In this document: piece by piece, positions 26,248-57,345 of the stretch
How positions within the stretch are numbered: position 1 is the first letter of the stretch
Layout of the letters: each line of letters starts with the position of its first letter
Source of the DNA: Squalus acanthias
Taxonomy: Eukaryota
Length of the DNA: 64,000 nt
Reading direction: 5' to 3'
NCBI GenBank assembly: GCA_030390025.1
Contig: CM059431.1
Location: 117,058,001 to 117,122,000, forward strand
Translations under genes and position numbers: made by a program
Notes under the pieces: model-generated
The model's input: only the letters and a program-made list of their open reading frames with translations
The model's database searches: none
What the model was told of the DNA's origin: nothing

Positions 26248-26800
26248 TGTGATGTTTCAGATGCCAGGTGAAGTTGAGATGACAGAGCCAATCTATCAAG
26301 GGTGAGATATGATGTTGCAAGGAGGTGACAGTGAATAAAGAGTCCACTGCAAACACTTCCCAAATGCATAAAGCTGAAAAATCTCTTCTGAATACTGAAG
26401 GCTGAAGCTTCTGAGATTGGAAAGTGACCAGCTGTAAAATGGCAGGTTTTAAACCACTTTTGCAGCTGCCACCTAGTGAAAGAAATGTAGAGTTGTTCAG
26501 AACCCGACATACTTACCTGGCGAGATCCCCGAGTGACGGGAACCTCGTGGAAAACTTGGCAAAATGCTTTGGAACTGGGAAAATGGGGATTTAATTACTT
26601 TAAACACCCTCCTAACAAGCACAATTGAATGTCCCGCCACTTAGTGCCGTGTCTGCAAAGCGCAGGCAGAATCGGCACTTGGGAAACTGACAAGGAGGCG
26701 GGTTTAGAGCGGGATAACGGCCCACTGTCAATCCTTTGGATTTTGACAGCCGACCCGCCTCCAAACCCGCCCTCTGAGCGCCGGCAAAATTCAGCCCTAA

Positions 26801-39180: not shown

Positions 39181-42043
39181 GCTCCCCTAACCCGCGCCCG
39201 TTTTTGGCCTAACGTGAACATCTCCCCCCCCCCCCCCGCCCCCGCCCATCACCGCCAGGTGTGGTAAAGTTCCTTACTACAAAATACAGCAGTCAGCAAA
39301 GGGCTATATTCTCCAAATGTTATTAAACTCTTTAAGCAAACGCATTTTCTGATTTCACCTCTCCCTACACCAGCAATCGATGCCACAGTGGTTTATGTGT
39401 TCTGAAAATATAATAACTTTAAAGCTATTTTATTGCGAAAGGGAAACACACAGAAGGCCCAACATATTTGAAAAACAAAAATGAAAAACTACAGATCAAT
39501 AATTTGCATCTTGTGCCTATATTATTGTGTAATCTTTTTTTATAGTAACTTCATAATTTTGCTAATATTACTTTGTTCTATTTAATGAATCTCAATAATA
39601 TTCAGACATGTAATTAGAAAACTGACATGATTGTCAAATTAGTGGTAATTACACTTATCTTTATGCAGACACATTTCAAGGACATTTTATTAATTCCTAT
39701 ACATAGAGTGCACTTGATTTAATATTCTCTGGCTGTAATACCTTTCTTGTTCTAAATTCAAGATGTTTTACCCCTGTGGGAAAACATTTTATTCCTGTTG
39801 TCCAATTGAGTTGCGCCATTTTCCTTGCAACATCTAATTTTTGAGTCGCTTGCCTCAAAATGCTTTCAGAGCAGCAGCCGGTTATTTTCTTTTCAGCTTG
39901 AAATAAAGGTTATTGCTTTTCATTGGCATAAAATAAGATTCAGCCTGAAAAGTGGGCTTCTCTAATTTTATAATAAAAGACCAATGCTGCTGAATCTACT
40001 TGGATTGTTATTCTGAGAAAATTCACCTCAGTAAAAGCATGGATGCAGTATGGTATTGATCTGGCCAGTCATTTAATTGAGGCAAGTTGTTATTAATGTA
40101 TCTTTTTATCTGAAAGTATGCCTATGTCTGCTGGGAATGGATCTGGTCAGCGCTGATGATATTACACCAGTGATAGATATCAATTCAGACTTTCCAGTTG
40201 ATAGGCGATCAGTCAGCGAGTGTCTCTGGAGGTTCAGTACAACCTTTTGTAGTAGTTCTTATCAGTGACCAAGCAAAATATATTGTACTTTGCTTGCAAT
40301 GTCTCTGGGGTAGGTCACTAATAATGCAACTAGTCAATAGATGATGCAGTCTTTGATGGACCTGGATCATAATGCACTGTAAAATGAATCACATATTGGA
40401 ATTTTGTCTTCTGAAAGAGTCCCAATTCTGCATAGTCGCTTAATTAGTCATACTCCATTCATGGGGACATATTTCAAAATCTCTCCTTAGTATAAAGGCT
40501 GGTCGCAAATTTATTTCTTTTAACTAACATATGACATATACAAATCCTTACATCTTTTGCATATAATTAATAGAAACTGCTGCGCTGATACATGACTGAC
40601 CCTGTTAATTGTGTGTGTGTCTCCAAAAGCGAAGAGTTTAGTTGCTGTCAGGGATGCTGTGAATAGCTGAGGGTGGGCTTGGCGATGATTCATTATGGCA
40701 AGAACTATGCACTTTAGAAATGTTTAGTTTTCAAACATGGTTGCCGCGGGGGTAAGGATCGTGCGCGATCTTACCTACCGCGCCTGCCGTTATGGTTTTG
40801 GCCCACACGAACTTCTGCTCCTGGGCCTCTCCCTGGTGCCGGCGTGCAGTGTGTGCGTGTCCCAGAGGCGCAGTTAGTTCGATGCGACCTCTGGGATCAC
40901 GTGGGCCAGTTAGAGCCAATGGCAGCACACCATCTTTCATTCATAGTTTTGACAGGAAGAGCTGTCAAAACTATGAGTAGAACAAGCCCCCAAAAGAACA
41001 GCTAAACCTCAATTAATTTTTTTTTAAAAACCATCACATTAATAAAATAACTATAGTTAAATAAATTAACCACTTTAAACAAAATTTAAATTTTTGAAAA
41101 AATTTAAATTCTTTTTAAAAGTTATAAAAATAAACTTACCTTTCTTTAAAGTCTCTAAAAAAGATAAACCTGTTGAAATTTTTTTAAATAATACTTAATT
41201 AACTACTTACCTTGTTAAAAGGGGGTCTTACGCCTCCTTTCTTCATGTGTAAAATCTTCAACACTTACCCTCGCGTTCAAACCTGAAAAAAAAACTAAGT
41301 GTGCTGCGTGCGCACAACCTGTAGTGCGCACGCGGTTCACTTAGGAACCGCCCCCTTCGCAATATCGGAAGTGCCGGTTTCCCACGCATGCGCAGTGCAT
41401 GCAGGAAACCGGCACTTCGGGACCGAATATGGGTGAGTACACAGTGCGTACTCCGTATTCGGACGAATTTCTGGGCCTTTCATTTTTGGAAGTTGTTATA
41501 AAACTTTGGGCTACTGTCCGGTGCAATACACTGGGCTAGAAATTCGGCTACATAGCGCCCGATTTTTTGGCGCTACGGGTGCCGTTCTGTGATGAAAATG
41601 GCGTCTGCATCGTACGCACACACTTCTGGTGCATGCCGCGCCGGCGCCATCTTGGTTAGGGCAGTAGGGCGGGCGTTAGGAGCGTGCGCTGGATGTAGGT
41701 TGAGTGGGCAGATCATGATGTCAATCAGCGTGCAACGCTAATTTGACGCCCGTGCTGTCCTTTTCGTCCTCAGCACTGGAGCTAACATCCTGTCATAACC
41801 TCGCAAAGCTGATCATGTGTTCAGCAGCAGCAAGGACCCCTCACCAGCGATATTTAAAGCGATCAGCAACTATTCTAAGGTTAGTTGCTGATTAATTTCG
41901 AATGGCTCTGTGTAAGTTTGTGGAAGTGTTTGGAGGTTTCTAGAGTTGTTTAAAGTTGGTGAGGTGACAGGGAGTGGTGCTGCAAGTGGAGAAGGCCTTG
42001 GTTCTGACTTCAAGGGTTCTGGTCAGACCACTTGCTCCCATTC

Positions 42044-43190
42044 ATGGGTGCTGTAGCTGTCATCCCCCTTGGCCTGCAGCATGACAGGGAGATGGAGCAG
42101 AGGCAGCGAAGAAGAGGACAAGCTGCTCGTAGAGGGAGGAGGAGGAGGGGGAGAAGGGCACTCAGCAGGAGGCCTTACTCACCTAGGGTCTTCCGAGAGC
42201 AATTCTCTTACCTCAGCCTGAGCCAGGAGCAGTGTGTGAGGCGTCTGCACTTTACAGAGGAGGTACTCACAGAACTCTGCCACCTCTTGCAACCAGACCT
42301 GCAGCCTCACACCAGGGCAAGGACAGCGCTGCCAGTGGCTGTGACGGTGACTGTGACCCTGAATTTCCTCGGGTCAGGATCTTTCCAGGCTGGAGCAGGC
42401 GACATTTGTAACATCTCCCAGTTCGCCATCCACTGCTGCTTAAGAGAGGTCACAGATGCTCTTTATGCCAGGAGAGGGGACTTCATTGCCTTCTATCTGA
42501 CCAGAGAGAAGCAGGCGGGGCATGCACATAGCTTTGCCAGGATAGCAGGCTTCCCCATGGTGCAGGGTGAAATCGACTGCATGCACGTGGCTTTGCGGGT
42601 GCCACATCTAAATGCTGAGATGTACCGCAACCGTAAAGTTTACCACTCACCGAATGTGCAGTTGGTGTGCGACCATGCTCAGCACATCCTCATAGTGACT
42701 GCTTGGTATCCTGGCAGCAGTCATGATGCTTTTATTCTGTGCCAGTCCATTGTTCCCGCAGTCTTTGAGCCATCACGACAAACCAGAGGGTGGCTACTGG
42801 GCGACAAGGGCTATCCACTGACCACCTGGCTCATGACGCCGCTCCGCAACCCACGTACATGTGGGCAGCATGCGTACAATGAGAGCCATGCTGCCACATG
42901 GAATCTGATGGAGCAGACCATTGGCATCCTTAAACAACACTTCCACTGCCTGGACCACTCTGGCAGTACCCACCAGAATGTGCCTCACGATTTGTCGTGG
43001 TCTGCTGCATGCTACACAACCTCACCATCATGAGAGTACAGCCCTTGCCACCAGACATACAGCGACCAGCTGAGGAGTAGGAGGAGGAAGCGGAAGAGGA
43101 TGAAGAGGAAGAGGAGGAGGCAACAAAGAGAGCCCTTTTCTGCCCGGGGTGTCTTTGAATGACTCATCCGATCACACAGCCAGTGAACAC
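42044..43190 (+). pseudogene. Harbinger transposase, frameshifted or deleted near the C-terminus
   Basis: GEIDCMH, LLGDKGY, MEQTIG; frame lost after CLDHSGS. Confidence 0.88.
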
Positions 43191-44148
43191 AACCCCAATT
43201 CCCCACCCCACACCTTACCTTCCCTCTGTTACTGACCATCACAGTTTCCTCTTAGCCACAATGGTAGAATAAAAGCCACCACAGAAGAAACAATCCAATC
43301 CAACTTTATACATCAATCCATCCAATATTACATAGCAAACTCAACTAATCACACTTGTGCATCCCCTTAGTGCCTGTTTTCAGTGTGCCTTTGCCTGTCC
43401 TCGTGCTCCTACGAAGTGCTACCCCAGTGGCTGCTGCATGGCTGGTGGAAGGCTGCTGACTTTCAGTGGGGGAGACTACAGAATGCCTTGCAGAAAAACC
43501 TTGAGCATCTCTGGGCCTAGAAGGCCCAGCTGCAGACTACACCACCACCTCACATGGGCTACAGCAGTCTGGGCTGTTTGGCTTGTAGAATTCGCAATTA
43601 TCGCGATTTCATTTTAATAAGGAGAAAACACAAGTTTCGTTCAAAACAGCTTTTATTTCAGCGGAATGCTGTCAGGTTTAAATTGGACACAAGCAGCCTG
43701 TAAAATGGCCGCCGCACCGCGTGACAGAACATTCGAGACTTTTCAGCAGGCAGACAAGATGGCGTTCCAATAAACATTTTTGCAGGATCGATAACGATTC
43801 AGCACAGTGAAGACAATACACAGGACATTATGGGTTTACAGTATAAACATCGATACTGGGATCGGTCTCCCAGGTACAAAGGAAAGCCATCAAGGGCCCA
43901 TCCAAAGGACATTAATATGTAAACTCCCAACGGCTCTACGATGAGAGAGCCGTTAGCAGGTAGTTATACAGGACACTTGGAAGCCCCAAACCCCTCCAGG
44001 GGGAACACCGACCGATTTAACAATGGGAGAAATATTAACAGGTACTCAAACATTCAGGAGTAGCCCCGAAACCCATTAAGGACAGAGATCACCCATACAG
44101 GACATTTTTGGGCGCCAAACCTTAAACAAAAGAATGGACATTGTAGTT

Positions 44149-44180
44149 AGGCGGGAAACGGAAGAACTGTGCACTATAAT
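44149..44180 (+). promoter_or_regulatory. Putative LTR promoter (GGCGGGA box and TATA)
   Basis: ggcggga...gcactataa is conserved in both solo LTRs. Confidence 0.55.
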
Positions 44181-44956
44181 TGCAGGCCCAAACCGTCCAT
44201 TCGCTCTCTTGCTCTTTTGCTCTTGACTCTTGCCGCTTGCTGCTGTTATCATCGTGGCTGCTCCTGTGTTTTATCCGGTCGATTCGTAACCTCGTGGCTG
44301 CTCCTGGGTAAAAGACTGTTGCAAAGACCTATGTTGGTAGCTGGCAGCGGAACCGAAGGCCCGGGATGAGATGAGATGAGATGAGATGAGAGGAGAAGAG
44401 AAGAAGACCTTATCCATCGCCACGGTCAGTAAATCCCGACCGCGCCTGTAGGTCGATCAGCCAAGTCTTCTCGACAGGAAGTTTTCTTCTTTAACAAGAC
44501 ATATTGCATCGATGATAACTGGACTGTGTAAACACATCGTATCAGTGATATTGACAACGGTGCTCCACGATTAAACTTTGAAGCCCACCAACAGAGGTCT
44601 TCACTACAGCGGACGGTCCAGCCGACTGACCGAGCAGCAGAAGCAGTAAACAAGTGGGACCAGGAGATCTCCTGACCAACACGTGGGTGCTGCGGTGAAA
44701 AACATCCGATCAGCTATTCGGGATTTCTCCGAGTTATTACGAGTGGTGAGCATGAGTCTCGGGATCCTACGAAGCTAGTTTTAGGATAGTTATTGATAGG
44801 GGAGGGTTTAAAGATTAAGGATATTTGTAATGTGTGCCCTATTTACGTTGTGCTGGTCGTTCCTCGTTTCCCTAAGAGTGATTATAACTGTTTGTAAGAT
44901 TGTACTGTCATTAATCTGTGCATATGACATGTATTTCATAATTTTAAGTATCATGC

Positions 44957-44962
44957 AATAAA
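44957..44962 (+). terminator. Poly(A) signal AATAAA (3' LTR copy at 55920-55925)
   Basis: atgcaataaagatt is conserved in the solo LTRs; aataaagatt also in the 37661-39180 LTR. Confidence 0.7.
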
Positions 44963-45208
44963 GATTTTCCATTTCGTACCGTTCAAACCAAGTCTACATG
45001 AGTTTTATCTCCATTACTGCTCTCGCATCTAAGTCCAGTGTCTAGAACCGTAAGGGAGAGTGATTCGAACCACTCACAGGGGTGTCTAGTGTTCCCAGAC
45101 TGGCTGGAGACCAGGCCTAGACCCGCACTGACATACAGGCTGCACAGAGCCGCGTGAACCTCACAGGCTACGAGACACGCAGGGTCAGGAGAGTATCCCT
45201 TACAGAAA

Positions 45209-47020
45209 ATGGCGACCGCGGCAGGACACTGGCAGCGAGAGGGTAGTGTGTTAGATTTTGGAATGACTGTACGAAATGTGATGCAGGAAAAGATAGCGGA
45301 TTACGTATTTGGAAAGGTTAATCTAACGAAAAAGTGGATAAGTGAACTGTTAGCGGATAAGAGCCCACTAGAGGCAGCTGAAAGGTGGACGGATAGTAAG
45401 GAGCATAAAAAGGCAGTTGAGAAAGCAGTCTGGCTTATGTGCTACAAAAGGCAGGTCCAGATTTCAAACCAGACCAATACAGCGCTAACCGCTCGAATCA
45501 AGCATCTAGAGGAGGAAATGGAGGAGAAGGTTTCTGGAGGGGAGGCGCTCATTAAGAGTTTAAATGAGTTACGCCAGGAAAGCCAGGAAGTCTCCAGCTA
45601 CCTTAAAACAAGGGTAGAGTATCTCGAGTGCCAGATCACTGAAGCAAAATTAAACGAGAGTAGGATGAAGGAAAGATGTAACCGTCAAGCTGCCCAGATA
45701 AGAACTCAAGAAGAGAGCTTAATGGGGGTTAGGTCGGCGTATAAGTTGGCCCTTGAGGATAAGTTTCAGGGAGCCGACCATAGCGCCTGCGAAAAAGAGA
45801 TAGAGAGCCTCAAAAAGGCCGTGAATAATGCGAACGGCATGGTGTGCCTTATTAATCCGTCGGCACGCCAGCCGCTAGTAAATGAGAGATTTAGAAATTC
45901 CCCACCAAGTAAAGCAGAAGAAGTAGTAGCCACTGCGCCCTCCGCGCCACCCAGCTATTCAGAAACCTGGGTTAGGGAGGAAGCAACGGAAGAAACAAAA
46001 GAGCCCGTTGAAAAGGAAGTAGAAAAGGGATCGTTGTATCCAGTAACGGGGATTAAAAGGGGCCCAAGCAGAAACGGTGGGGAAGAACCGGGGGATCTCC
46101 TCGGACAGCTGGTGTTGCCTCACAGTTCACATCAGCTGAGAGCCATGATAAACCACGTAAGGAAGCTGACCGAGATAGACGACCCTTCCGTACATTTCAG
46201 GGAAGTTGAGCAAGCCGCAGCCATTAACGGCTGCGATGATGGGGAGACAGCAAAAATGCTGCTGTTCTCATTAGACAGCTCGGTCCTTCAGTGCCTCTCA
46301 GGTGAGAGCAAGAGGGGAAACAAAAGTTATGAGGAATTGAAAAATGAGGTCCTAGAAGTAGTGGGAGCGAACGACGGAGGTCCGTTTGCTAGAGTGGGAC
46401 AGACAGTGCAGATGGAGGGAGAACCCCCGAAGGTTTTTGCCGACAGGCTGTGGCCAGTATATGAGCGCAGCTGTCTAGGTGCGCCCGAGCGCGAAGATGT
46501 GGAAGGCGCCGCTTTAATTCATTGGCTTAGGTGCATAATAGCCAACAGTTTACCAGCCGTTAGAGAGCAGGCAAAAGCCTGGTTCGATCCCAATGACCTC
46601 AACCTTACGGAAGAGTCGGTCTTGAATCGACTCACGTTAGGTTACCGTAACATAAGGGGTATGGCAACACGTCCCTTTAAGGGAAGAGTACATGAGGTAC
46701 GACCCGCAGCCCCGGCTCAAAGAGAGTGGCATCAGGAGGGTAATCGCGCCCCACAGGCAAGTAATGCCTGTTACGGGTGTGGGAAGACAGGGCACTGGCG
46801 CAAGCACTGCAGGAACCCTTGGAAGGATTCCAAGGATAAAAATCCCGCGGTCCGAACCCAGGCGCCTGTCCCGGCTAAGGAAGCAAAGGCACCCACCTCT
46901 CCCGAAGACCTCGAGGCAGTGTTAGGAGTCATGCGCAAGATGGTTTTGAATGCGCGTGGACAGGTGGCGGTCGCAACCGGCCCCGTAGGTGCCGCAGGAC
47001 CGTCTAATAGTGCCCCATGA
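45209..47020 (+). CDS. gag: Gag polyprotein (603 aa)
   Basis: N-terminal coiled-coil region, PSAPPSY late motifs, capsid-like region, CCHC knuckle CYGCGKTGHWRKHC (46769-46810); start codon uncertain. Confidence 0.9.
   Translation: MATAAGHWQREGSVLDFGMTVRNVMQEKIADYVFGKVNLTKKWISELLADKSPLEAAERWTDSKEHKKAVEKAVWLMCYKRQVQISNQTNTALTARIKHLEEEMEEKVSGGEALIKSLNELRQESQEVSSYLKTRVEYLECQITEAKLNESRMKERCNRQAAQIRTQEESLMGVRSAYKLALEDKFQGADHSACEKEIESLKKAVNNANGMVCLINPSARQPLVNERFRNSPPSKAEEVVATAPSAPPSYSETWVREEATEETKEPVEKEVEKGSLYPVTGIKRGPSRNGGEEPGDLLGQLVLPHSSHQLRAMINHVRKLTEIDDPSVHFREVEQAAAINGCDDGETAKMLLFSLDSSVLQCLSGESKRGNKSYEELKNEVLEVVGANDGGPFARVGQTVQMEGEPPKVFADRLWPVYERSCLGAPEREDVEGAALIHWLRCIIANSLPAVREQAKAWFDPNDLNLTEESVLNRLTLGYRNIRGMATRPFKGRVHEVRPAAPAQREWHQEGNRAPQASNACYGCGKTGHWRKHCRNPWKDSKDKNPAVRTQAPVPAKEAKAPTSPEDLEAVLGVMRKMVLNARGQVAVATGPVGAAGPSNSAP
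45210..45227 (+). other. Primer-binding site, tRNA-Arg
   Basis: TGGCGACCGCGGCAGGAC is the 18-nt complement of the 3' end (...GUCCUGCCGCGGUCGCCA) of vertebrate tRNA-Arg(TCG) as I recall it; 5 nt downstream of the LTR. Confidence 0.85.
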
Positions 47021-50000
47021 CTAGAACCAGCACAGCCCGTCTACCTGTGTCCGCTCAGCTATGATGCGTGGAGGCGACCTGTGGTGGAGATGGAGGTAGA
47101 GAAACAAAAGGGCAGTTATTTGTTGGACACGGGAGCTTCTTGCACCATAATCCATACAGATGACCCTTTTGACTCGCCGCTATCTACCAAGGTCCCATTC
47201 ACGCTAGCAGGGTTCACAGGGAAAGAACAGGCTGGCACGTTTTCCCTCCCGCTATCCATTCGTTTAGGGACACTTCGCCTTAAGTGGAAGTGTATACTGA
47301 TGGCATGGCAAAAGGGGGGTGGAAGAGGTATTCTCGGGTCCGATCTGCTAGCGGGACACGGGATCCTCGTGGACCTCAGAAATCACTGTCTCTGGGGGGC
47401 TAAAGGTGAAAAAGGCGAGGTAATGGTAATTCAAGGGGAGGAAGAAACAGGGGTCCTGTGTACCGTACAGCCATCCGGAGGCTACGACCTCAGGCTTATG
47501 GTCGCAGATGTCCCAACGGACATGCAAACGTACGTGACAGATAATATGCACGCGTTTGCAACCCACAAGCACGATTGTGGGAGGGTGGTCGGGTTTGAGG
47601 TCAGCGTAGATGGGGACCCCATGACCCGACCCCAAAAGCAGTATAACTTCCCCAAAGAAGCAGAACCCGATATGGAGGCAGCAATGTCTTCCTTGGTGCA
47701 GCAGGGCGTGTTGAGGCCGATAGCCACACACGTGAACTCCCCATTATGGCCGGTTAGGAAGCCGGATAATTCGTGGAGAGCCACGGTGGACTACAGAGTC
47801 CTTAACAGTAACATCCCCGCCTGCGCGCCCACAGTAGCAGCAGTTGCTGACCTAATAGGGAGCATCCCAGCGTCCGCGACCACGTTCACGGTGCTGGATA
47901 TCTCGAACGGTTTTTGGTCCATCCCGCTGCGGCGAGAGGACCAGTACAAGTTTGCCTTTACGTTTAAAGGGCAACAGTACACGTGGAACTGTTTGCCACA
48001 AGGTTTCCACAATAGCCCCAGTATTTTTCACCAGTGTATGGCAGGAAGTTTAAAGGAGTTTAGTCAGCCCAATCAGATAGTACAGTATGTGGATGATTTG
48101 CTCCTATTTACGGACTCAAGGGAGGAGCACGGACCACTGCTGGACGAGTTATTGGAGCTGTTAGCGAGAAAGGGTTTTAAAGTAAACCCAAAGAAAGCAC
48201 GTATCGGTCAGCAGGAAGTAAAATTCCTGGGACTGACCCTACGCGCTGGGGAAAGAGCCATAGACAAAGCAAGGAGGGAGTCGGTGCAAGAATTACCGAT
48301 TCCCAACAACGTAAGGGGTGTGAGGTCCTTCTTGGGACTGACCGGTTACTGCAGGGATTTTATCGAGGATTATGCGGCCACAGCGGCGCCGCTCCTCCGA
48401 CTCCTCCATAAGGGAGTAGAGTGGCTTTGGGACGAGGGCTGCCAAGCAGCCTTCGAGAAGTTAAAAAGGGATCTGCAGACCGCGCCAGCCTTAGGGGCCA
48501 TAGATGGGGGGAAGGAGTTTTTCCTGGAGGTAGCTGCCAGCGGAGACAGCTTAAGCGCCGTGCTGCTCCAAGAGCGTCACGGCAAGCTGAGGCCGGTTGT
48601 CTATTCATCCAGGGTATTAACGGATGTGGAGAGAAGTTTTTCCAATTGCGAAAGGCACCTTTTAGCCACGCATTGGGCTGTGAAAAGATCAGCGATCTTC
48701 ACAGGGCTCTCTCCCATCACTCTCCTCACACATCACACACCAACTAAGATGCTTCTGGATGGGAGGATTAAAGACGGGACCGTAAGCAGCGCACGCATTG
48801 CGCGTTGGACCCTTCTTCTCTCCCAGTTGGACATCAGAGTAAAAGGTCTTTGCGAGCCCAGGCTTGCGGCCAATTTGGTATACCCCGGTACAGCCCACCG
48901 GTGTTCGGTGGAGGGGGTGTGGGACGTCAACATAGGTTTACGGGCCGGGGTACATCCCACTGGGCGCGAGATTTATGTTGATGGGTCTAGCACAGTATCT
49001 GCTGGCGAGCGACTCACAGGGTGTGGAGTTTATGACCCTGCGGCAGACCTTGCCCTGGCGATCAAGCTCCCTAGCACCATGAGCGCGCAGCAGGCTGAGC
49101 TGTCTGCCGTGGTGTACGTGGTAACCCACCCAGACATTTTCCCAACCCCATACACGATTTGCTCGGACAGTATGTTCACCTGCAATTCGTGTACGGAATA
49201 CCTGGCCATTTGGTCCCGCCGTGGATACACCTCCGCGGACGGGCGACCTTTAACGGTAAAGCCCTTGCTGGAGAAGATCTTAGCAGCAGCAGTAGGGGAG
49301 GAAGGGGAGATTTTCATCCATAAGGTGAAAGCTCACTCCTCCACAGAGCCCCGTGGGGAGGGCAACCGGCAGGCGGATGCGCTAGCCAGGGAGGGTGCCC
49401 GCGACGGTACTTTCTGGAACCCCTATAGAACCGGACCCATAGCAGCGGTCCGAGGTGGGGACGGGAATACCGGGAACACCAGGGTAGCATTGCCCCTAGA
49501 CCTTAAGACCGTCCAAGCCCAGGATCCCGCCCTAAAAGCAGTCCTAAAAACGATTGCTGAGGGGAGGCAGGTAGAAGGTCCGTACAGTACGGCAACCCTC
49601 TCAGTTAAGGAAGGCATGCTGTTCCGCGAGGAGCAGTGGGTTGTGCCGCAGCAGCACAGGAGGGAATTCCTCCAGTTGGCTCACGAGGGACCAGGGGCAG
49701 GGCACCCCGGGCCCGAGGTTACCTGGCAACGGGTAGAGCAAGCGGGATGGTGGCCAGGGCTCAGGGAACAAGTCCGCGAGTTCTGTGCAAACTGTCTTGT
49801 GTGCGCTGCAAACAACCCAGACCCCCAGAAAAGGAAGGTGCCCATGGGACACGTAAGAAGGGTAGAGGGACCATGGCAGTCGATACAGATCGACTATATA
49901 GGACCCCTGCCCACCACCCAGGGAGGTTATAAGTACTGCCTCGTCCTGGTGGATGTGTTTTCCAAGTGGGTGGAAGCCTTCCCTTGTCGAACAGCTACGG

Positions 50001-51484
50001 CACTGGGTACAGCAAAAATCTTGGTCCGGGAAGTGTTCTCGCGGTGGGGACTCCCCCGTTTCGTGGAGTCAGACCAAGGGAGTCATTTCACCGGCCAGGT
50101 GATGCAGAACACCCTCATGCTTTTGGGCATTGAAGGGAAGTGGCACGTAGCACACAATCCCCAGTCATCCGGGATTGTTGAACGTATGAACCGGACCCTG
50201 AAGGAGAAATTGAGGAAAGAGACTAGGAACTCGCCCCAAAAATGGGCGGAAGTTCTGCCTTTAGTCCTCATGGGGGTCCGGGCCAGTCAGTCAAAAAGTA
50301 CGGGGTACTCCCCGCACGAGGTAATGACCGGCAGGCTCATGCGAACCCCCACCCATGTGCTAGCCCCGGTGCTCACTGAGGGTCAGCTTCAAGAGATCAG
50401 CAGGGACAAGTTCGCCCAAACTCTCTTGGAGCGCCTGAAGCAAGTTTATCAGCAGGCGGCTGGGAACATGGGAAGGCAGCACCAGGGCAATCGCTTGTTG
50501 CTGGAACCCCGCAAAACGCGGGAGTGGGAAGTAGGAGACCAGGTCATGGTCAGAAACTACGCCAGAGTAGGGAGTCTGGAACCACTGTATATGGGACCCT
50601 ACAACATTGTAGACAAGGCAAGTCCCATGGTTTACGCCGTAAAAGTACCTCGGGGCACTAAGTGGTTCCACATAAACCAATGTAAACTGTACCAGCCGGG
50701 TGCGCAAGGGAAAACTACAGGGGTAAATCCCGCCAATGGGAAAACACAGCCCCAGGTAGGACCACAAGGCACACAGGCAGGCGTAGCAGCTTGCATCAGG
50801 GGAAGGGACATCCCGGACGATCATGCAGCGTTTTTCTGGAGTTGGGGGTTAGATGACGAGGACCCCAGGGTACCCTGGTCAGATGAGGATAGTGCAGATG
50901 AGCATAGTGATGATGACGGGTGGTTTCAGAGGAACGGTCTGGAAGGATTGGGGCCGCTAGGTAGAGATCCATACGGGGTGGACACACAAGCTGCAGGTCC
51001 CGACAGCAGGAGGAAGGAGCTAGAGGAGGCCGGGCCAGCCGCTATGTGGTTCCCAGAGGTGTGGCCGCCCGCTTTGAACGTCCAGTCCTCAGGGGAGGCA
51101 GAGTTCGCGAGTGAAGGGCCGCCTGCTGGGCCGAGCAGGGCGGGGCCCCGAACTGCCAGCCCCGAGGTTAGGGAGGCGGAGTCAGCGGAGGCGGGGCTGG
51201 CGCCTGTGATGGAACCCCAGGTCATCCCGTTGAAGGTCTCGGGACCCGGTCCGTCCGTCACGGAGCCCCCGCCCATAGCAATTCCCCGTAGGTCAAGCAG
51301 AGTACCCCAGCCCAGGAAGATGTGGTCAGGTCCCCAGGCTGCCCTAGGGCGTAAGTTTCAGGTTAAGATAACCCGGGTAGAGACAGGCCACATCGAAGCA
51401 GTAACAGGCTGCGGCAGATCAGAGGAAAGGGTCAGTGCCCTCCCACCGTCGGGAAGAGCTCGCAGCAGCCTTCTCAGGATTTAA
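47021..51484 (+). CDS. pol: Pol: protease, RT, degenerate RNase H tether, RNase H, integrase, long tail; in frame with gag
   Basis: LLDTGAS; LPQGF, YVDD; IYVDGSS/AQQAEL/SDS/VKAH/GNRQAD; HHCC, D-D35-E (QIDY, SDQG, VERMN), GPY. Confidence 0.96.
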   Translation, partial: LEPAQPVYLCPLSYDAWRRPVVEMEVEKQKGSYLLDTGASCTIIHTDDPFDSPLSTKVPFTLAGFTGKEQAGTFSLPLSIRLGTLRLKWKCILMAWQKGGGRGILGSDLLAGHGILVDLRNHCLWGAKGEKGEVMVIQGEEETGVLCTVQPSGGYDLRLMVADVPTDMQTYVTDNMHAFATHKHDCGRVVGFEVSVDGDPMTRPQKQYNFPKEAEPDMEAAMSSLVQQGVLRPIATHVNSPLWPVRKPDNSWRATVDYRVLNSNIPACAPTVAAVADLIGSIPASATTFTVLDISNGFWSIPLRREDQYKFAFTFKGQQYTWNCLPQGFHNSPSIFHQCMAGSLKEFSQPNQIVQYVDDLLLFTDSREEHGPLLDELLELLARKGFKVNPKKARIGQQEVKFLGLTLRAGERAIDKARRESVQELPIPNNVRGVRSFLGLTGYCRDFIEDYAATAAPLLRLLHKGVEWLWDEGCQAAFEKLKRDLQTAPALGAIDGGKEFFLEVAASGDSLSAVLLQERHGKLRPVVYSSRVLTDVERSFSNCERHLLATHWAVKRSAIFTGLSPITLLTHHTPTKMLLDGRIKDGTVSSARIARWTLLLSQLDIRVKGLCEPRLAANLVYPGTAHRCSVEGVWDVNIGLRAGVHPTGREIYVDGSSTVSAGERLTGCGVYDPAADLALAIKLPSTMSAQQAELSAVVYVVTHPDIFPTPYTICSDSMFTCNSCTEYLAIWSRRGYTSADGRPLTVKPLLEKILAAAVGEEGEIFIHKVKAHSSTEPRGEGNRQADALAREGARDGTFWNPYRTGPIAAVRGGDGNTGNTRVALPLDLKTVQAQDPALKAVLKTIAEGRQVEGPYSTATLSVKEGMLFREEQWVVPQQHRREFLQLAHEGPGAGHPGPEVTWQRVEQAGWWPGLREQVREFCANCLVCAANNPDPQKRKVPMGHVRRVEGPWQSIQIDYIGPLPTTQGGYKYCLVLVDVFSKWVEAFPCRTATALGTAKILVREVFSRWGLPRFVESDQGSHFTGQVMQNTLMLLGIEGKWHVAHNPQSSGIVERMNRTLKEKLRKETRNSPQKWAEVLPLVLMGVRASQSKSTGYSPHEVMTGRLMRTPTHVLAPVLTEGQLQEISRDKFAQTLLERLKQVYQQAAGNMGRQHQGNRLLLEPRKTREWEVGDQVMVRNYARVGSLEPLYMGPYNIVDKASPMVYAVKVPRGTKWFHINQCKLYQPGAQGKTTGVNPANGKTQPQVGPQGTQAGVAACIRGRDIPDDHAAFFWSWGLDDEDPRVPWSDEDSADEHSDDDGWFQRNGLEGLGPLGRDPYGVDTQAAGPDSRRKELEEAGPAAMWFPEVWPPALNVQSSGEAEFASEGPPAGPSRAGPRTASPEVREAESAEAGLAPVMEPQVIPLKVSGPGPSVTEPPPIAIPRRSSRVPQPRKMWSGPQAALGRKFQVKITRVETGHIEAVTGCGRSEERVSALPPSGRARSSLLRI

Positions 51485-51768
51485 AGGGGCCGCCCTGAGA
51501 ACGGGCGGCATTGTAAAGTTATTAGTTTAAGGTTTTAAGTTTTAGTTTAAAGTTTTAAGTAGTTTTAATAAGGTTAAGTTTGTAGTGTTTTTAACAGATA
51601 ACGATAAAATGATGGGAGTTTTAAGGCTAGGTTTAGAGGAAGTCTATTTAGCAAACGTTGAAGTTTACGTGAGGCGAGGTCAGGGGACCCGCTCACCCTT
51701 CACAAAAGCCAGAGACTTTTTGCGAGGCTGGCTACCTCATTCTATCTGATCACAGGAACCAAGGAAGG

Positions 51769-54120
51769 ATGGAACGACTTCTAGTTTTGCTCGTGGCAAT
51801 CGGATGTGGATTGGCCTATCGGGGCCTCACCAAGGATGTCGTGGTGTTTGGATGTTCCGGGGACACGGCCCCCATCGCGGTGGATGGGACCGGAAGACGG
51901 AAGGCAGAAGGGACCAGCACCTATTTCCACAAGGGAAGGTGGCCAGGATGGCTGGGAACGAACTCAACGGAGTATTCCAGCACATCGGGGTTCGCCTACA
52001 AAGAGACTTCTTTAATGTGCCCCAAAGTACGGATCATCGCACCCAGGATCAGCGTCACCGTCGGCAAACGGATTTGTTTGACCTGCAGTGGGAATGTCCC
52101 ATTGAGCCGATGGTGGTGGCTGCGAAAGCTGAGCAAAACTATGAGGAACTCTTCGGTTGAGTGGGAGCGACTGGGTAATAATACCCATCGGACAATTACG
52201 GGGACAGATGGACAAGTGAAAGTCTGTTGGGACAAATGGTGGGAACCAGATGAGGGGATTTATGTTTGTATGTGGGGGTCAAAGTACGTTTGCCCCAAAG
52301 GCATCTCCATATTCTTTATTAACCAGTGGCAGGATAACGGACAGGGGATGAGGTGGGATGCGAGCACCAGGGGGTGCGGAGCCCCATACTCTCCGATCCC
52401 AGTAAATGCCACTGAGCTCATTACGCGCCCACGCAAAGCCCCGCCCACGATTCCGGTAGTTCTAACTGAGGAAGAAGGGTGCCCTAAAACTAGTAAGGGA
52501 CCCGGGAACGGTTTGGTACTGGTCCCCACAGACCAGATACTATTTCAGGGGGTACATTACGCGGTGGCCTCGGTGATTTTAAATCTCACTGAGGTACGGT
52601 TACCAGAGTGGTGCCCCAAAAAGACGGAACAGTTGTACCAGATCCTGTTGACCAAGATGTTCAGGCAATTTTACGAGTTTGATTTTGCAGAAATCGATAA
52701 GACAAGTTTATACACCGCACCGCAGGAAGTTTTGGACCAAGTAGGGAGGCAAAGAAGGGGTTTGGTGAACGATGCGTTCACTGCTTTTAACACAGGGACA
52801 TCTGTGGTCAACGCTCTAGACAGTGTGGAGCTGCAGACCCAGATTAATGGTTTAAAAACACAGTTAAAGGATATTCTTACAGATGAGAATAAAGTGGTAG
52901 GGTCGGGTCTGCACGAGGACCAAGCCATGACACTACACTTAAAAGAGATTATAGCAGAGCTGGAGAAACATGCGCGTACGGTAAATGCCCTGATTAGGGA
53001 AGATCGGAATGCATCCGATCAAGCTGCGCAGAACGAGGTGTGCGTGCTTTACGGGGCGTGGTTACTGGGCGAGGGCCGCAGTAATTTGGAGGATTTAAAA
53101 CAAGGTTTGGTCCCGTCCTGGATAAGTAACAAACACCTGCGGGCGCTCCACCCTTTTCAGAATGCATTAAGTCCGTGCCAGCTCAGGCTAGCTTCAGAAG
53201 CTTACCCAGTCCCCGTGGACTGCGGACGTTCAAACCATACTATTATGGGAATAGTATTACGCATGCCGGTTTTGGGCAACACAGCAAAGCCCGCCCCGGT
53301 ATATCGGGTAGAGAACATTGGTGTCATTCAGGGGGGAGCCCACATTCGTTATGCAGCGGTTCCACCTTACGTCATCCGCTGGGAGCAAACGATGACAGGT
53401 ACAGATCTCTCTGGTTGTCGTGGCAGGGGAGCACACATAATACTGTGCCCCCAGCACTTGAATGCCTTTTTAACACCACAGTGCGGGTTCAGAACGGCTG
53501 GCGCCAAGTCCATGAATTGCACCATGGAGGCAATGGCACAAGATCATGTGCCTCCGCAGGTAGCATACATCGGGGGTGGAACATATTGTGTTACCACTGC
53601 AGCGCAACACTACCAGCATGGAAACCGTAGCCGGTGTCCGGTGAGTGACAGCAGTTTCTGTTTTAAACCCAGGGCTGAAGTTCAAGTAGCACAACAGCGA
53701 ATTATCCCAATCCCTGAACCATCCACTGTTCATCTCACAGTAAAAGAGAATTTTACCGACTTGCAGCGATTTGTCGCACATTTTGGGTACCTCATTCCCC
53801 CTCTCCCTGAGCATTTAACCAAACTTCTAAAAGCCGTCGCGGTGTCACAAAAGCATTTCTATACATTAGAACAGAAAACCGTCGAGATAGGTACAGACAT
53901 TTTGGACATAGTGGTTCCACCGTGGTGGAATCTGTTCACGAATATTGAAGTGCCCTCATGGGTCAGAATAGCCTCCCACATTTTAGTCGTCTGTCAAGTG
54001 TTTATTGTAGTATACCTATTGTTCATACATTGTAAAAGAGACAAACGCCTCACCAAGCATGAGAACACGGGAGAATGGCGAGAACGTTACGTGCGCGTGC
54101 ACGACGAGAGCGCAGTGTAA
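51769..54120 (+). CDS. env: Envelope / class I fusion glycoprotein (783 aa)
   Basis: Signal peptide, N-glycosylation sequons, furin site RQRR (52747-52758), fusion peptide, heptad repeat, Cys-rich ectodomain, TM (about 53968-54033), short tail. Confidence 0.9.
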   Translation: MERLLVLLVAIGCGLAYRGLTKDVVVFGCSGDTAPIAVDGTGRRKAEGTSTYFHKGRWPGWLGTNSTEYSSTSGFAYKETSLMCPKVRIIAPRISVTVGKRICLTCSGNVPLSRWWWLRKLSKTMRNSSVEWERLGNNTHRTITGTDGQVKVCWDKWWEPDEGIYVCMWGSKYVCPKGISIFFINQWQDNGQGMRWDASTRGCGAPYSPIPVNATELITRPRKAPPTIPVVLTEEEGCPKTSKGPGNGLVLVPTDQILFQGVHYAVASVILNLTEVRLPEWCPKKTEQLYQILLTKMFRQFYEFDFAEIDKTSLYTAPQEVLDQVGRQRRGLVNDAFTAFNTGTSVVNALDSVELQTQINGLKTQLKDILTDENKVVGSGLHEDQAMTLHLKEIIAELEKHARTVNALIREDRNASDQAAQNEVCVLYGAWLLGEGRSNLEDLKQGLVPSWISNKHLRALHPFQNALSPCQLRLASEAYPVPVDCGRSNHTIMGIVLRMPVLGNTAKPAPVYRVENIGVIQGGAHIRYAAVPPYVIRWEQTMTGTDLSGCRGRGAHIILCPQHLNAFLTPQCGFRTAGAKSMNCTMEAMAQDHVPPQVAYIGGGTYCVTTAAQHYQHGNRSRCPVSDSSFCFKPRAEVQVAQQRIIPIPEPSTVHLTVKENFTDLQRFVAHFGYLIPPLPEHLTKLLKAVAVSQKHFYTLEQKTVEIGTDILDIVVPPWWNLFTNIEVPSWVRIASHILVVCQVFIVVYLLFIHCKRDKRLTKHENTGEWRERYVRVHDESAV

Positions 54121-54534
54121 TGGGAAAATGGCGTCACTCCCGCTCGCCACGTGCGCCGCGGAAGTTTGTACTCATTGTAAATACGTTGGAAACTCGACAT
54201 GTTTAAGAGTCGGGATTTGTTTATTTTGGTGATGGTGTTGATTGTTTGGTTTTTGGGTTTTGTTTTTCCTTCCCTTGAATAAAAGACAAATATACAGGTG
54301 ATGCGTGAGGTATCGGCCTGGTTACGCCGGGAAGGAAAACAAGTGGTGTAAGTTTAAGGGCAAATGATGCCTACGGTGATATAAAATGTGATTTTTTCTT
54401 GGGAAATGAGGACGACACAGAGACCCTAGTGAAGTTAAAATTTTATGGGATTAATTTACTGGATTCGGAGTGAAATCGAGATAAGATTGCTCACCACTGA
54501 GATTTTTGATACGATAAGCGGAGTTATTCGCATC

Positions 54535-54546
54535 AACAGGAGGGAC
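54535..54546 (+). other. Polypurine tract
   Basis: aacaggagggac immediately before the 3' LTR TG. Confidence 0.7.
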
Positions 54547-56167
54547 TGTAGAATTCGCAATTATCGCGATTTCATTTTAATAAGGAGAAAACACAAGTTT
54601 CGTTCAAAACAGCTTTTATTTCAGCGGAATGCTGTCAGGTTTAAATTGGACACAAGCAGCCTGTAAAATGGCCGCCGCACCGCGTGACAGAACATTCGAG
54701 ACTTTTCAGCAGGCAGACAAGATGGCGTTCCAATAAACATTTTTGCAGGATCGATAACGATTCAGCACAGTGAAGACAATACACAGGACATTATGGGTTT
54801 ACAGTATAAACATCGATACTGGGATCGGTCTCCCAGGTACAAAGGAAAGCCATCAAGGGCCCATCCAAAGGACATTAATATGTAAACTCCCAACGGCTCT
54901 ACGATGAGAGAGCCGTTAGCAGGTAGTTATACAGGACACTTGGAAGCCCCAAACCCCTCCAGGGGGAACACCGACCGATTTAACAATGGGAGAAATATTA
55001 ACAGGTACTCAAACATTCAGGAGTAGCCCCGAAACCCATTAAGGACAGAGATCACCCATACAGGACATTTTTGGGCGCCAAACCTTAAACAAAAGAATGG
55101 ACATTGTAGTTGGGCGGGAAACGGAAGAACTGTGCACTATAATTGCAGGCCCAAACCGTCCATTCGCTCTCTTGCTCTTTTGCTCTTGACTCTTGCCGCT
55201 TGCTGCTGTTATCATCGTGGCTGCTCCTGTGTTTTATCCGGTCGATTCGTAACCTCGTGGCTGCTCCTGGGTAAAAGACTGTTGCAAAGACCTATGTTGG
55301 TAGCTGGCAGCGGAACCGAAGGCCCGGGATGAGATGAGATGAGATGAGATGAGAGGAGAAGAGAAGAAGACCTTATCCATCGCCACGGTCAGTAAATCCC
55401 GACCGCGCCTGTAGGTCGATCAGCCAAGTCTTCTCGACAGGAAGTTTTCTTCTTTAACAAGACATATTGCATCGATGATAACTGGACTGTGTAAACACAT
55501 CGTATCAGTGATATTGACAACGGTGCTCCACGATTAAACTTTGAAGCCCACCAACAGAGGTCTTCACTACAGCGGACGGTCCAGCCGACTGACCGAGCAG
55601 CAGAAGCAGTAAACAAGTGGGACCAGGAGATCTCCTGACCAACACGTGGGTGCTGCGGTGAAAAACATCCGATCAGCTATTCGGGATTTCTCCGAGTTAT
55701 TACGAGTGGTGAGCATGAGTCTCGGGATCCTACGAAGCTAGTTTTAGGATAGTTATTGATAGGGGAGGGTTTAAAGATTAAGGATATTTGTAATGTGTGC
55801 CCTATTTACGTTGTGCTGGTCGTTCCTCGTTTCCCTAAGAGTGATTATAACTGTTTGTAAGATTGTACTGTCATTAATCTGTGCATATGACATGTATTTC
55901 ATAATTTTAAGTATCATGCAATAAAGATTTTCCATTTCGTACCGTTCAAACCAAGTCTACATGAGTTTTATCTCCATTACTGCTCTCGCATCTAAGTCCA
56001 GTGTCTAGAACCGTAAGGGAGAGTGATTCGAACCACTCACAGGGGTGTCTAGTGTTCCCAGACTGGCTGGAGACCAGGCCTAGACCCGCACTGACATACA
56101 GGCTGCACAGAGCCGCGTGAACCTCACAGGCTACGAGACACGCAGGGTCAGGAGAGTATCCCTTACA
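54547..56167 (+). repeat. 3' LTR
   Basis: Direct repeat of 43584-45204. Confidence 0.97.
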
Positions 56168-57345
56168 GGCTGACAGTTAACAGCAAGGGCACTGGTGGAG
56201 TGGCAGTGGTGGAAGCACAAATGCCGTCATCCTGAGAGAGGACAGCAGGTTTGTGATCCACAGAGCCATTGCCACTCCTACAGAGCGGCGTCTCAGCATT
56301 ACTAGCCATCTGTTGGAGGACAGATTGCTGGACTGCTGTGACACACTGCAAGCCCCTTTCCACATTGGTAAACACAGCCACGATGGCAGCAGTCTGAGCT
56401 TGCATGGCAGCAAGCTGAGCCTGCATGAGAGCAGTCTGAGCTTGTGTGACAGACGTCTGAGCTTCCACTGCAGTACTCAGACTTTGGGTGGCTTCTGTTT
56501 GTTCTACAGTGGAAGCTGAGACATCGGCCATCAGGCCCTGCATCATGGTTGGGCCACAAGTGCGCTAATGGAGTTGCCCATCACTTCCATGCTGGAAAGG
56601 ATGGGCTCCAAGCTCTGCGCAAAGCCCTGTGCAAGGTTGGTGCCAGACTCCTCCATGCTCCTTGACATTACACTCAGGCTTTCTGGCAGGCCTGCCAATG
56701 CAACAAGCATTTCATTGTGCATACCCATCAGCATTCTTCTGTAGGCCACCCCATCGAAGTCCTCATCTGAGTCCTGTGCCACAGAACTCATGTGCAACCT
56801 TGCCCTCCGGGGAGCTGGCACCTGTGCTACCCCCTGCCCTGGCTGCAGCCCATTCATGCCCGATGACTCAGCGCGTGCAGATCCCGCCTCTAAGTTACCC
56901 TCTAAAGTCCGCGCAGCGCCAGTATCTGAGCTGGTGGCGGCGAGTGTCTGATCGAGTGATGGTCTTTCTACTTCATCATCACTCTCCTCTCCCTCTTCTT
57001 CCTGCACCACTGCCTGGCCAGTTTGGATTTCTTCAGTCTCTGAAATGAGTAAGGCACCAGGGTACGGTTGTGGTGAGGGGAGGCGGGGAAAGGAAGAGAT
57101 GCATACTTACACCATGTGCAGCTTGTAAATCAGAAGAAATTGCGGGATGAGGGGGAAGTGGGATGTGAGAAGAAGGATTATGTATGAGGATACCAGCATC
57201 TTGTATTCTTTCAGCCCCTCTGCTGGCCACGTGCTCAGTGATGCCCCTCTCAATAATGGCCAGCACTGTCTTCTCCACGGGGATCGGGTTATGCAGGCGC
57301 ACCTGTCTCCTGCTGGAGCTGGTTGTAAGCCATCTTTTCCTGCAA
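56168..57345 (-). pseudogene. Harbinger Myb-like gene exons 2-3 (continues at 43583 and leftward)
   Basis: Acidic and Ala/Gln-rich ORFs 56543-57010 and 56163-56546, homologous to 60835-61323. Confidence 0.75.

Follow-up and report, generated by a model that had tools for sequence, protein, structure and literature searches.

Background

In alphaviruses the stop codon readthrough signal consists of UGA-CUA and an extended 3' stem, which starts at +12 to +16 and spans 126-177 nt (PMC3159437, PMC13517186). In human cells UGA-CUAG drives readthrough, with UGA-CUA alone giving 1.5%, and in the human genes with CUAG 12 nt past the stop suffice (PMC4132726). A screen of 765 variants of positions +1 to +4 found only CUAA to be superior to CUAG, and proline before the stop ranks among the worst codons for readthrough in human reporters (10.64898/2026.07.14.738498). 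The stem following UGA-CUA is dispensable in PSIV. Among retroviruses, according to a 2026 review, every experimentally tested readthrough signal is the gammaretroviral UAG with a pseudoknot, and the UGA cases given there are without the CUA motif. Among fungal elements, Tj1 needs its stop (PMC4600332), and the gag-UGA-pol junction of Candida Tca2 reportedly gave no readthrough in a reporter (PMC2194720). Here we analyze the gag/pol junction of an endogenous provirus in a stretch of 64,000 nt from Squalus acanthias, which we call the window.

Organization and affinities of the provirus

The intact, young provirus occupies positions 43584-56167 of the window and displays the Retroviridae layout of LTR-PBS-gag-pro-pol-env-LTR with a target-site duplication, all features being on the + strand. 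The 5' LTR (43584..45204, 1621 bp, TG...CA) and the 3' LTR (54547..56167), delimited by their ends and by blastn against each other, differ at 1 of 1621 bases (at 44149), and the duplicated GGCT lies at 43580..43583 on the left and 56168-56171 on the right. The primer-binding site (45210..45227) begins 5 nt past the LTR and presumably pairs with tRNA Arg-UCG; a literature search with its motif gave no matching paper. The gag gene (45209..47020) has 603 codons from its first ATG, in a frame open from 45158 up to the TGA at 47018-47020, and encodes one CCHC zinc knuckle; a Pfam search with Gag returned no match. By eye, Gag residues about 100-225 are coiled-coil-like; some lokiretroviruses have an smc-like gene with a coiled coil upstream of gag. 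The pro-pol frame (47021..51484) is open for 1487 codons, begins LEPAQPVYLCPLSYDAWRRP and is in frame with gag, a single TGA-CTAG separating the two. It encodes, in order, a protease (DTG), RT (YVDD), tether, second RNase H, integrase, an SH3-like domain and a tail of about 260 aa. The env-like ORF (51769..54120) shows, by eye, a hydrophobic N-terminus, an RQRR furin-like site and a C-terminal membrane segment. Homologs of it are present among the gene models of skate and sawshark, and it matched no Pfam family above the cut-off. Comparison with the paramyxovirus fusion protein, to which the Env of lokiretroviruses is related, yielded neither a PF00523 nor a PDB match, the Atlas lead stayed under 0.9, and the structure model (pLDDT 34) was too poor for use. 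Apart from the gag/pol TGA no ORF of the provirus is broken.

In the RT tree the provirus falls inside a 100/97 clade of 35 rows along with gamma-, epsilon- and SnRV-like Pols. Its retroviral affinity is evident both from this position inside the retroviral clade and from the tether plus second RNase H, Pfam having matched both RT_RNaseH and RNase_H in Pol. The RTs of lokiretroviruses form a clade of their own that is sister to the remaining retroviruses. We considered and rejected a lokiretroviral identity: the tree separates the provirus from P0023, the sole loki-like row (labelled by eye from its protease motif), and five RT-region motifs of the provirus's group are absent from the lokiretrovirus supplement. 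It is likewise distinct from foamy viruses, as pol is neither in another frame nor equipped with its own AUG and a Cys-His box is present, and from the class III elements ERV-L and XtERV-S, as it has YVDD in place of YIDD, a CCHC box and no dUTPase match in the Pfam search of Pol. No RT with three of the four motifs of the provirus was found in 12 of the 14 supplementary files of a 2023 ERV survey. Close copies occur in sequencing runs labelled as 7 organisms, and the 24 runs listed include no RNA run. Related DNA loci were found neither in viral contigs nor in a first metagenome scan, and a second scan recovered 79 loci at 26-35% identity, which we take to be at the Ty3/gypsy level.

The gag stop and its context

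The earlier note had described CTAG and an open frame leading into the protease right after the gag TGA, and both coordinates and translation bear this out. The resulting UGA-CUAG (47018..47024, + strand) is a type II readthrough context, a class in which UGA precedes CUA or CGG, here with CUA directly after UGA and in frame with the downstream coding region; the gammaretroviral type III arrangement of UAG-G with a purine-rich 8-nt spacer is absent from the junction. The codon preceding the stop is that for proline. The combination is rare: of the 2202 TGAs counted over both strands of the window, 6 (0.27%) precede CTAG, and of the 165 TGAs on the + strand of the provirus just one, that of the junction, precedes CTA. 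The 20 codons past the stop are open as had been noted, but they are more than a linker: in alignments, codons 7-20 correspond to the N-terminal region of related proteases. The Asp of the protease DTG is pro-pol codon 36 and the sole Met upstream of it is codon 24 (47090). As this Met lies past the conserved N-terminal protease motif, no AUG yields a whole protease. The single slippery-like heptamer found (at 46673) is out of register, and frameshifting is not needed because gag and pol share a frame.

Conservation of the junction

Two homologous Gags, P0128 (45% identical) and P0136 (39%), terminate within one residue of the same position; that no longer, fused Gag homolog occurs among 7999 candidates adds little weight. 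At the nucleotide level, diverged contigs part from the window at two points: X1, X14 and X15 cease to match toward gag at 47016/17, and X4, X14 and X15 toward pol at 47050/52. These edges delimit a conserved island of 36 nt (47017..47052, + strand), which comprises the stop, CUAG, the spacer and the 5' basal arm of the long predicted RNA rod described below. Conservation extends to +32 past the stop, over that basal arm. Further along the 5' arm, its middle (47053-47083) is diverged in the relatives; among the 24 listed loose ends, none marks the edge of a conserved 3' arm. The edges of the island hold 7 of these 24 loose ends (there are 186 further ones), with all 4 runs represented. By eye, six of the seven are open in the expected frame, and one diverged loose end retains the protease peptide despite changes at all 6 synonymous positions. 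Loose ends display flanks only, so that the two edges may sit on separate contigs and we infer the TGA-CTAG letters of the relatives from where the match starts. With this reading of the letters, the Gag ends and the island edges together point to conservation of both stop and type II context among the relatives. The position of the gag stop is inherited and marks a real junction.

This bears directly on the idea that the TGA arose by nonsense mutation in this copy alone, the family otherwise having fused gag-pol, the CUAG and the folding being coincidental. Fused frames do exist in distant relatives, 10 of 24 lokiretrovirus consensus entries being labelled fused gag-pol, and in the coelacanth gene model P0005 gag and pol are joined without a stop, as read from the gene model. 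Nevertheless, we consider a nonsense mutation scarcely credible: the LTRs are nearly identical with no other ORF broken, the two diverged Gags stop at the same place, and a chance TGA would rarely precede CTAG, at the frequency given above. The earlier note had pointed to a sense codon in other copies as an observation that would speak against readthrough; no variant site in 46946-47268 is found among the best 40 listed (393 further ones) in the four runs.

The island also informs the question of whether Pol is instead expressed from a spliced RNA in the manner of foamy viruses, with an acceptor AG at 47024, 47030 or 47035 joined to an upstream AUG, and CTAG representing a splice site. Three YAG sites do lie just past the stop, a branch-point-like CTAAT is present at 47005-47009, and the provirus is placed among the basal branches of the retroviral tree. 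A crude pyrimidine score offers no separation between these AGs (0.50-0.55) and the presumed env acceptor (0.55). However, conservation begins one base before the TGA and not at an AG, the three AGs rank 13th, 19th and 20th among the 86 YAGs of the region, and three lokiretrovirus junctions keep TGA-CTA without an AG. Of the 4 listed joints, not one has an end at any of these AGs; X4 and X15 are read as RNA by conjecture here, and the stretch compared lies outside the LTR donor region. Further, the shared frame of gag and pol and the zinc knuckle of Gag set the provirus apart from foamy viruses. Splicing is hence, in our assessment, a very unlikely source of Pol.

A predicted long RNA rod downstream of the stop

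Folding with ViennaRNA, which does not predict pseudoknots, yields an unbranched rod at 47023..47243 (+ strand), a prediction with 84 bp and -97 kcal/mol, in which 168 of 225 nt are paired. Its base starts at 47030/47033, i.e. 9-12 nt past the stop, and pairs with 47230-47236; further inside, 47044-47049 pair with 47215-47220, and the UGA itself lies outside. The rod has a z of -6.2 against 200 dinucleotide shuffles, and in each of two synonymous-codon nulls 0 of 300 sequences did as well. Across 823 windows of the provirus it is the longest unbranched stem (84 bp; next 72, median 22), and the prediction holds over 10-37 C as well as after masking of the first 9-12 nt. Other parts of pol also fold well, with 7 further windows of 40 at z below -3, and folding predicts additional long stems for the LTR and for the region preceding env. 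The 5 weak Rfam matches are below the gathering score and none is at the junction.

A different structure had been put forward in the earlier note, namely a local hairpin (47027..47087, + strand) pairing CCAGCACAG at 47027-47035 with CTGTGGTGG at 47079-47087. Both arms are indeed at these positions, and the hairpin is the MFE fold of the isolated 70-nt fragment (-26.7 kcal/mol, z -2.1, with 7 of 200 shuffles doing equally well). Its significance is gone at 80-140 nt (z -1.3 to 0.0), and with 200 or more nt of 3' sequence it has a pair probability of 0.00, being outcompeted by the longer rod on the same 5' arm; forcing it costs 18 kcal/mol. By eye, 4 of its 9 pairs would break in one diverged relative if the 5' arm there is as in the window. 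In these models the hairpin is thus probably the wrong structure, and may at most be a folding intermediate. A medium-range stem pairing 47035-47058 with 47079-47113 was also rejected, appearing only in a 103-nt fragment.

We give the rod about an even chance of stimulating readthrough. The distance from the stop to its base falls exactly within the 8-12 nt of known stimulators, and the conservation to +32 covers its basal 5' arm. Against this stands a serious contender, to which we accord a little less than even probability: CUAG alone may suffice, the rod serving to protect the long 3' region from NMD, in export or in packaging, or being a by-product of a structured genome. The short 3' requirement of the human CUAG genes (PMC4132726), the dispensable stem of PSIV, the long stems predicted elsewhere in the provirus and the lack of sequence conservation in the middle of the 5' arm all favor it. 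It concerns the rod only and overlaps with the readthrough explanation that we favor.

The rod also enters into proposals in which the inherited stop is bypassed without being decoded, through (re)initiation at Met 47090, a junction promoter like that of Tca2, or RNA editing beside the rod. The 84-bp rod could conceivably bind an editing enzyme, but the UGA is outside it, and a start at codon 24 would delete the N-terminal protease strand, which has a role in dimerisation and is kept by relatives. None of these routes accounts for CUA(G/A). Hence, even with the precedent of Tca2 (PMC2194720), we regard such a bypass as highly improbable.

A proposed model for Pol synthesis

Taken together, these observations make it very probable that programmed UGA readthrough, of the alphavirus type II and not of the gammaretroviral kind, gives rise to Pol. 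This had been proposed in the earlier note on the strength of UGA-CUAG; the proposal gains support from the conserved stop of diverged Gags, the island starting at the stop and the same motif in other lineages, with the exception of the particular stem that was named. Under this proposal, unspliced genomic RNA would be translated from the gag AUG, and most ribosomes would terminate at the UGA at 47018, releasing Gag. In a few percent of cases a near-cognate tRNA would decode the UGA, with protease, RT, RNase H and integrase following in frame, which would result in a high ratio of Gag to Gag-Pol. The CUAG would provide a basal leak, and the long stem, with its base 9-12 nt past the stop and hence at the ribosomal mRNA entry, could raise this leak in an alphavirus-like manner.

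Comparison with known systems

Among retroviruses, SSSV (UGAAGA), two fish/frog ERVs (UGACGA, UGAAGU) and XtERV-S (PMC8278194) likewise have gag-UGA-pol in one frame, with readthrough being assumed; the accessible parts of their descriptions contain no CUA motif or stem. The XtERV-S junction is UGA-CAG-G and that of a bullfrog relative UGA-CUA-G (PMC8278194 supplements). XtERV-S differs from the provirus in its YIDD, dUTPase, lack of a zinc knuckle and gamma-type Env (PMC8278194). The lokiretroviruses of Wang and Han (PMC7947760) share the LTR-gag-pol-env organization and dual RNase H, and their consensus sequences have UGA-CUA(G/A) at all 7 visible stop junctions, 4 with CUAG and 3 with CUAA (PMC7947760 supplement); readthrough and stop codons are unmentioned in the main text of that paper. 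They differ in having about 70 codons from stop to protease motif as against 35 in the provirus, in short local hairpins (by eye) and in an RT that groups apart.

This raises the tentative possibility that UGA-CUA(G/A) with a 3' stem represents a third class of retroviral Gag-Pol signal, one that is general but has been overlooked and that the present lineage of cartilaginous fish shares with class III ERVs of frogs and with lokiretroviruses. It might even be ancestral at the root of Retroviridae, with the UAG-pseudoknot and frameshifts being derived, and the stimulator here being an unusually long paired rod within the protease gene. If so, the recurrence of a type II gag-pol signal in three deep lineages would extend the known retroviral recoding sites by a new class, furnish a natural long-stem stimulator and bear on which Gag-Pol strategy is the oldest. 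Annotation pipelines will get such elements wrong if they reject ERVs with a premature stop or take the first Met as the start of Pol.

Beyond these lineages, the fungal Tca2 (PMC2194720) and Tj1 (PMC4600332) also have gag-UGA-pol; however, these are not retroviruses, and the Tca2 junction reportedly failed as a readthrough cassette (PMC2194720). The vertebrate UGA-CUAG genes AQP4, MAPK10, OPRK1, OPRL1 and MDH1 have the identical 7-nt motif, but their extensions are short and no 3' structure is needed. The gammaretrovirus MoMLV and the epsilonretrovirus WDSV have one in-frame stop between the zinc knuckle and the protease DTG, serving the same purpose; theirs is UAG-G with an 8-nt purine spacer and a 50-nt pseudoknot, whereas the provirus has UGA-CUAG and a long predicted rod. 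With nsP3/nsP4 of alphaviruses such as Sindbis and VEEV (type II of Beier and Grimm) it shares UGA-CUA and a polymerase made as a readthrough fusion (PMC3159437, PMC13517186). It differs from these in that the site is a gag-pro junction and that the predicted stem of ~220 nt is paired almost throughout, unlike the short basal stem closing a long loop.

Provirus structure, insertion site and affinities

The UGA-CUAG junction (47018-47024) lies in a complete provirus, bounded by a 5' LTR (43584-45204, + strand) and a 3' LTR (54547-56167, + strand), both 1621 bp long with TG...CA ends, which differ from each other at 1 base and are flanked on either side by a 4-bp target-site duplication, GGCT. 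Downstream of the 5' LTR a primer-binding site begins at 45210 (+), for which we take the tRNA to be Arg-UCG. This site is overlapped by the first gag ATG (45209-45227), and the first six residues from that ATG also open a Gag with 39% identity to that of the provirus (P0136). Long open frames on the + strand correspond to gag (to 47020), pro-pol (47021-51484) and an env-like gene (51673-54120). The Pfam models matched in pro-pol are those of the reverse transcriptase (RT), the integrase and two RNases H, one of them of the tether type, with the protease falling below the cut-off; Pfam gave no matches above the cut-off for Gag and Env. Past the SH3-like domain of the integrase, Pol has a tail of about 260 acidic, Pro-rich residues (50700-51484) with no Pfam match. 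The N-terminal half of Gag (45500-45850) has the appearance of a long coiled coil and recalls the smc-like part of lokiretroviruses, yet the RT is not of the loki type. Over parts of its length Env (51769-54120) shares 63-78% identity with skate and sawshark gene models; these are its only three homologs, with no family match, and two of them are fused to host genes (Niban-like and cadherin-related). A cartilaginous fish is the probable host.

Both flanks of the provirus match neighbouring parts of a second repeat copy at 61.0-61.7 kb, and Harbinger-type transposase frames are present at 42008 and 61746, which together indicate that the provirus inserted into such a transposon. Harbinger-type (DDE_Tnp_4) copies occupy 42008-43583, 56168-56700, 60800-62700, 2859-3815 and 24808-26256, one of them interrupted by the provirus. 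Tandem arrays, with repeat units of 29 nt and 54 nt, are present in the window at 15244-15736 and 961-1284, as is a piece of a different reverse transcriptase at 10298-10867 on the reverse strand.

In a tree of the RT-tether region (47 proteins, 2 of the 49 chosen having been dropped for short coverage; LG+G4, no mixture model) the element falls inside a retroviral clade (100/97), where it belongs to a basal grade, itself unresolved, that also includes frog and coelacanth Pols, and the one loki-like protein lies apart from it; the outgroup is not monophyletic, foamy virus and ERV-L references are absent, and the group labels of unnamed sequences were assigned by eye. The features tested rule out lokiretrovirus, foamy virus, ERV-L and gammaretrovirus as its identity, and no named family was found for it.

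An inherited stop between gag and pol

The sequence contains the gag stop TGA (47018-47020) and, directly after it, CTAG and the run of open codons; both arms of the stem described in the earlier note are there as well. CTA follows just 1 of the 165 TGA trinucleotides on the + strand of the provirus, namely the gag stop, and CTAG follows 6 of 2202 in the window. Codons 7-20 past the stop correspond in alignment to the N-terminal part of related proteases, and five of seven compared proteins align from codon 7-11, without gaps up to the region of the catalytic motif shown. The N-terminal strand of the protease has a role in dimerisation. As the sole Met ahead of the protease DTG is codon 24, initiation there would truncate the protease, which speaks against some other bypass of the stop and leaves it a very improbable route to Pol.

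Searching with the junction peptide yielded 23 proteins, including two complete Gags that share 45% and 39% identity with the Gag of the provirus and both end at most one residue from the same position. By this comparison the gag stop is inherited, and its origin as a mutation specific to this copy is extremely improbable. The candidate search found no fused, longer homolog of the provirus Gag, itself a weak indication. A coelacanth NYNRIN-like gene model (P0005) combines Gag-like and related Pol sequence within one protein; this may reflect a fused frame, or else the stop has been spliced out in the gene model.

Twenty sequencing runs, labelled as seven organisms, contain at least half of the sampled words of 46300-48300, and four of them were compared with 45200-47900 at 80% likeness. 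None of the 40 variant sites listed from these four (with 393 more beyond them) lies inside 46946-47268. Contig ends that cease to match the window cluster on two edges (seven among the 24 listed, with 186 more beyond them): a gag-side edge at 47016/47017, in X1, X14 and X15, and a pol-side edge at 47050/47052, in X4, X14 and twice in X15. By eye, the gag-side ends continue as three differing, open Gag C-termini, and three of the four pol-side ends as in-frame protease-like peptides, the fourth being out of frame; one pol-side end encodes the residues of the window with 6 of 6 synonymous positions changed. These edges suggest that diverged families share a nucleotide island of about 36 nt beginning at the stop (47017-47052), as read from match edges each of which may lie on separate contigs. 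A contig of X1, a DNA run, has a 1764-base skip (46032-47797) with GT..AG ends, a short side of 20 letters and low depth; either noise or a spliced copy that was reverse-transcribed could account for it.

Predicted RNA structure downstream of the stop

The local hairpin proposed in the earlier note, pairing 47027-47035 with 47079-47087, did not withstand further folding. It is the best fold only of the 70-nt fragment (z -2.1), is not significant at 80-140 nt, and its pairs have a probability of 0.00 in 500-800-nt contexts; forcing the stem costs 18 kcal/mol, and by eye 4 of its 9 pairs would break in one relative. With more 3' sequence its 5' arm pairs far downstream, and the predicted fold becomes a single rod without branches (47023-47243; -97.1 kcal/mol), in which 168 of 225 bases are paired. 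The rod is more stable than every one of 200 dinucleotide shuffles (z -6.2) and than all 300 sequences under both of the synonymous-codon nulls applied (z -5.3 and -6.5). Among 40 gag-pol windows its z is the lowest, with its bounds chosen post hoc and seven other windows below -3. An unbiased scan of 823 provirus windows ranks its 84 bp first among unbranched stems, ahead of 72 bp for the runner-up and a median of 22. Most tested pairs have probabilities of 0.94-1.0 in 500-800-nt contexts, one has 0.62 and the outermost 0-0.32; with the first 9 or 12 nt masked the rod starts at 47030 or 47033, and it is predicted to persist at 10, 20 and 37 C. Its segment 47053-47083 has diverged in relatives, no edge marking a conserved 3' arm occurs among the 24 loose ends listed (186 more lie beyond them), and Rfam has nothing at the junction. 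The chances that the rod stimulates readthrough are about even. Decay-protection elements are another kind of element that occurs after gag stops.

Other predicted unbranched stems of the provirus include one of 72 bp in both LTRs (44197-44393 and 55160-55356) and one of 65 bp at 44738-44933. The former starts just past a TATA-like site at about 44173, and may represent a TAR-like element within a long R region. Between pol and env a stem of 69 bp is predicted at 51557-51780; it spans position 51597, where the env splice acceptor presumably lies.

Related junctions and the expression of Pol

The lokiretrovirus supplement holds 24 entries, 10 labelled as fused gag-pol and 14 with separate pol; the junction DNA compared covers seven of these 14, with Aro, Bpe, Lca and Rca outside the comparison (PMC7947760). 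By eye, TGA-CTA-G stands in frame at the junctions of Ofa, Cne, Pyo and Sau, and TGA-CTA-A at those of Dcl, Lro and Bsp; Tfu has an ambiguous residue followed by Leu, and Ape and Lch begin without a visible gag end (PMC7947760). Loki-Sau, -Ofa and -Pyo have, again by eye, short hairpins that start about 10-16 nt past UGA-CUAG and resemble one another in their 4-base loops (PMC7947760). Readthrough, stop codon and frameshift have zero mentions in that paper's main text and in its follow-up (PMC9040795). ERV-S of X. tropicalis and X. laevis has TGA-CAG-G and a defective bullfrog relative TGA-CTA-G, the corresponding passage of text saying only that the TGA may be suppressed (PMC8278194 and its supplement). 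In human reporters CUAA is reported as the sole one of 765 +1..+4 variants to outdo CUAG (10.64898/2026.07.14.738498). As CUAA contains no AG, its presence in lokiretroviruses argues against the motif being a splice site there. Synthesis of Pol from a spliced pol RNA is very unlikely.

On the sequence evidence, Pol is very probably made by programmed UGA readthrough, as the earlier note had proposed from UGA-CUAG; the proposal gains from the inherited stop, the shared island and the motif elsewhere, and loses its own stem. Against readthrough count the Pro codon at -1 to the stop (10.64898/2026.07.14.738498), the gag-UGA-pol precedent of Tca2 (PMC2194720) and the fused coelacanth model P0005.

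Precedents exist for gag-pol readthrough as well as for in-frame UGA junctions (PMC13517186, PMC8278194, PMC2194720, PMC4600332). The retroviral UGA contexts given in the portion covered of a 2026 review are UGAAGA, UGACGA and UGAAGU, with lokiretroviruses unmentioned there (PMC13517186), and a literature search, with most subscription papers and Repbase outside its reach, found no retroviral UGA-CUA signal. The junction of the element resembles the type II signal of alphaviruses, in which UGA-CUA is followed by a stem from +12 to +16 (PMC3159437, PMC13517186), and would act in the same way. UGA readthrough here would serve the same purpose as the gammaretroviral gag-pol signal (PMC13517186).
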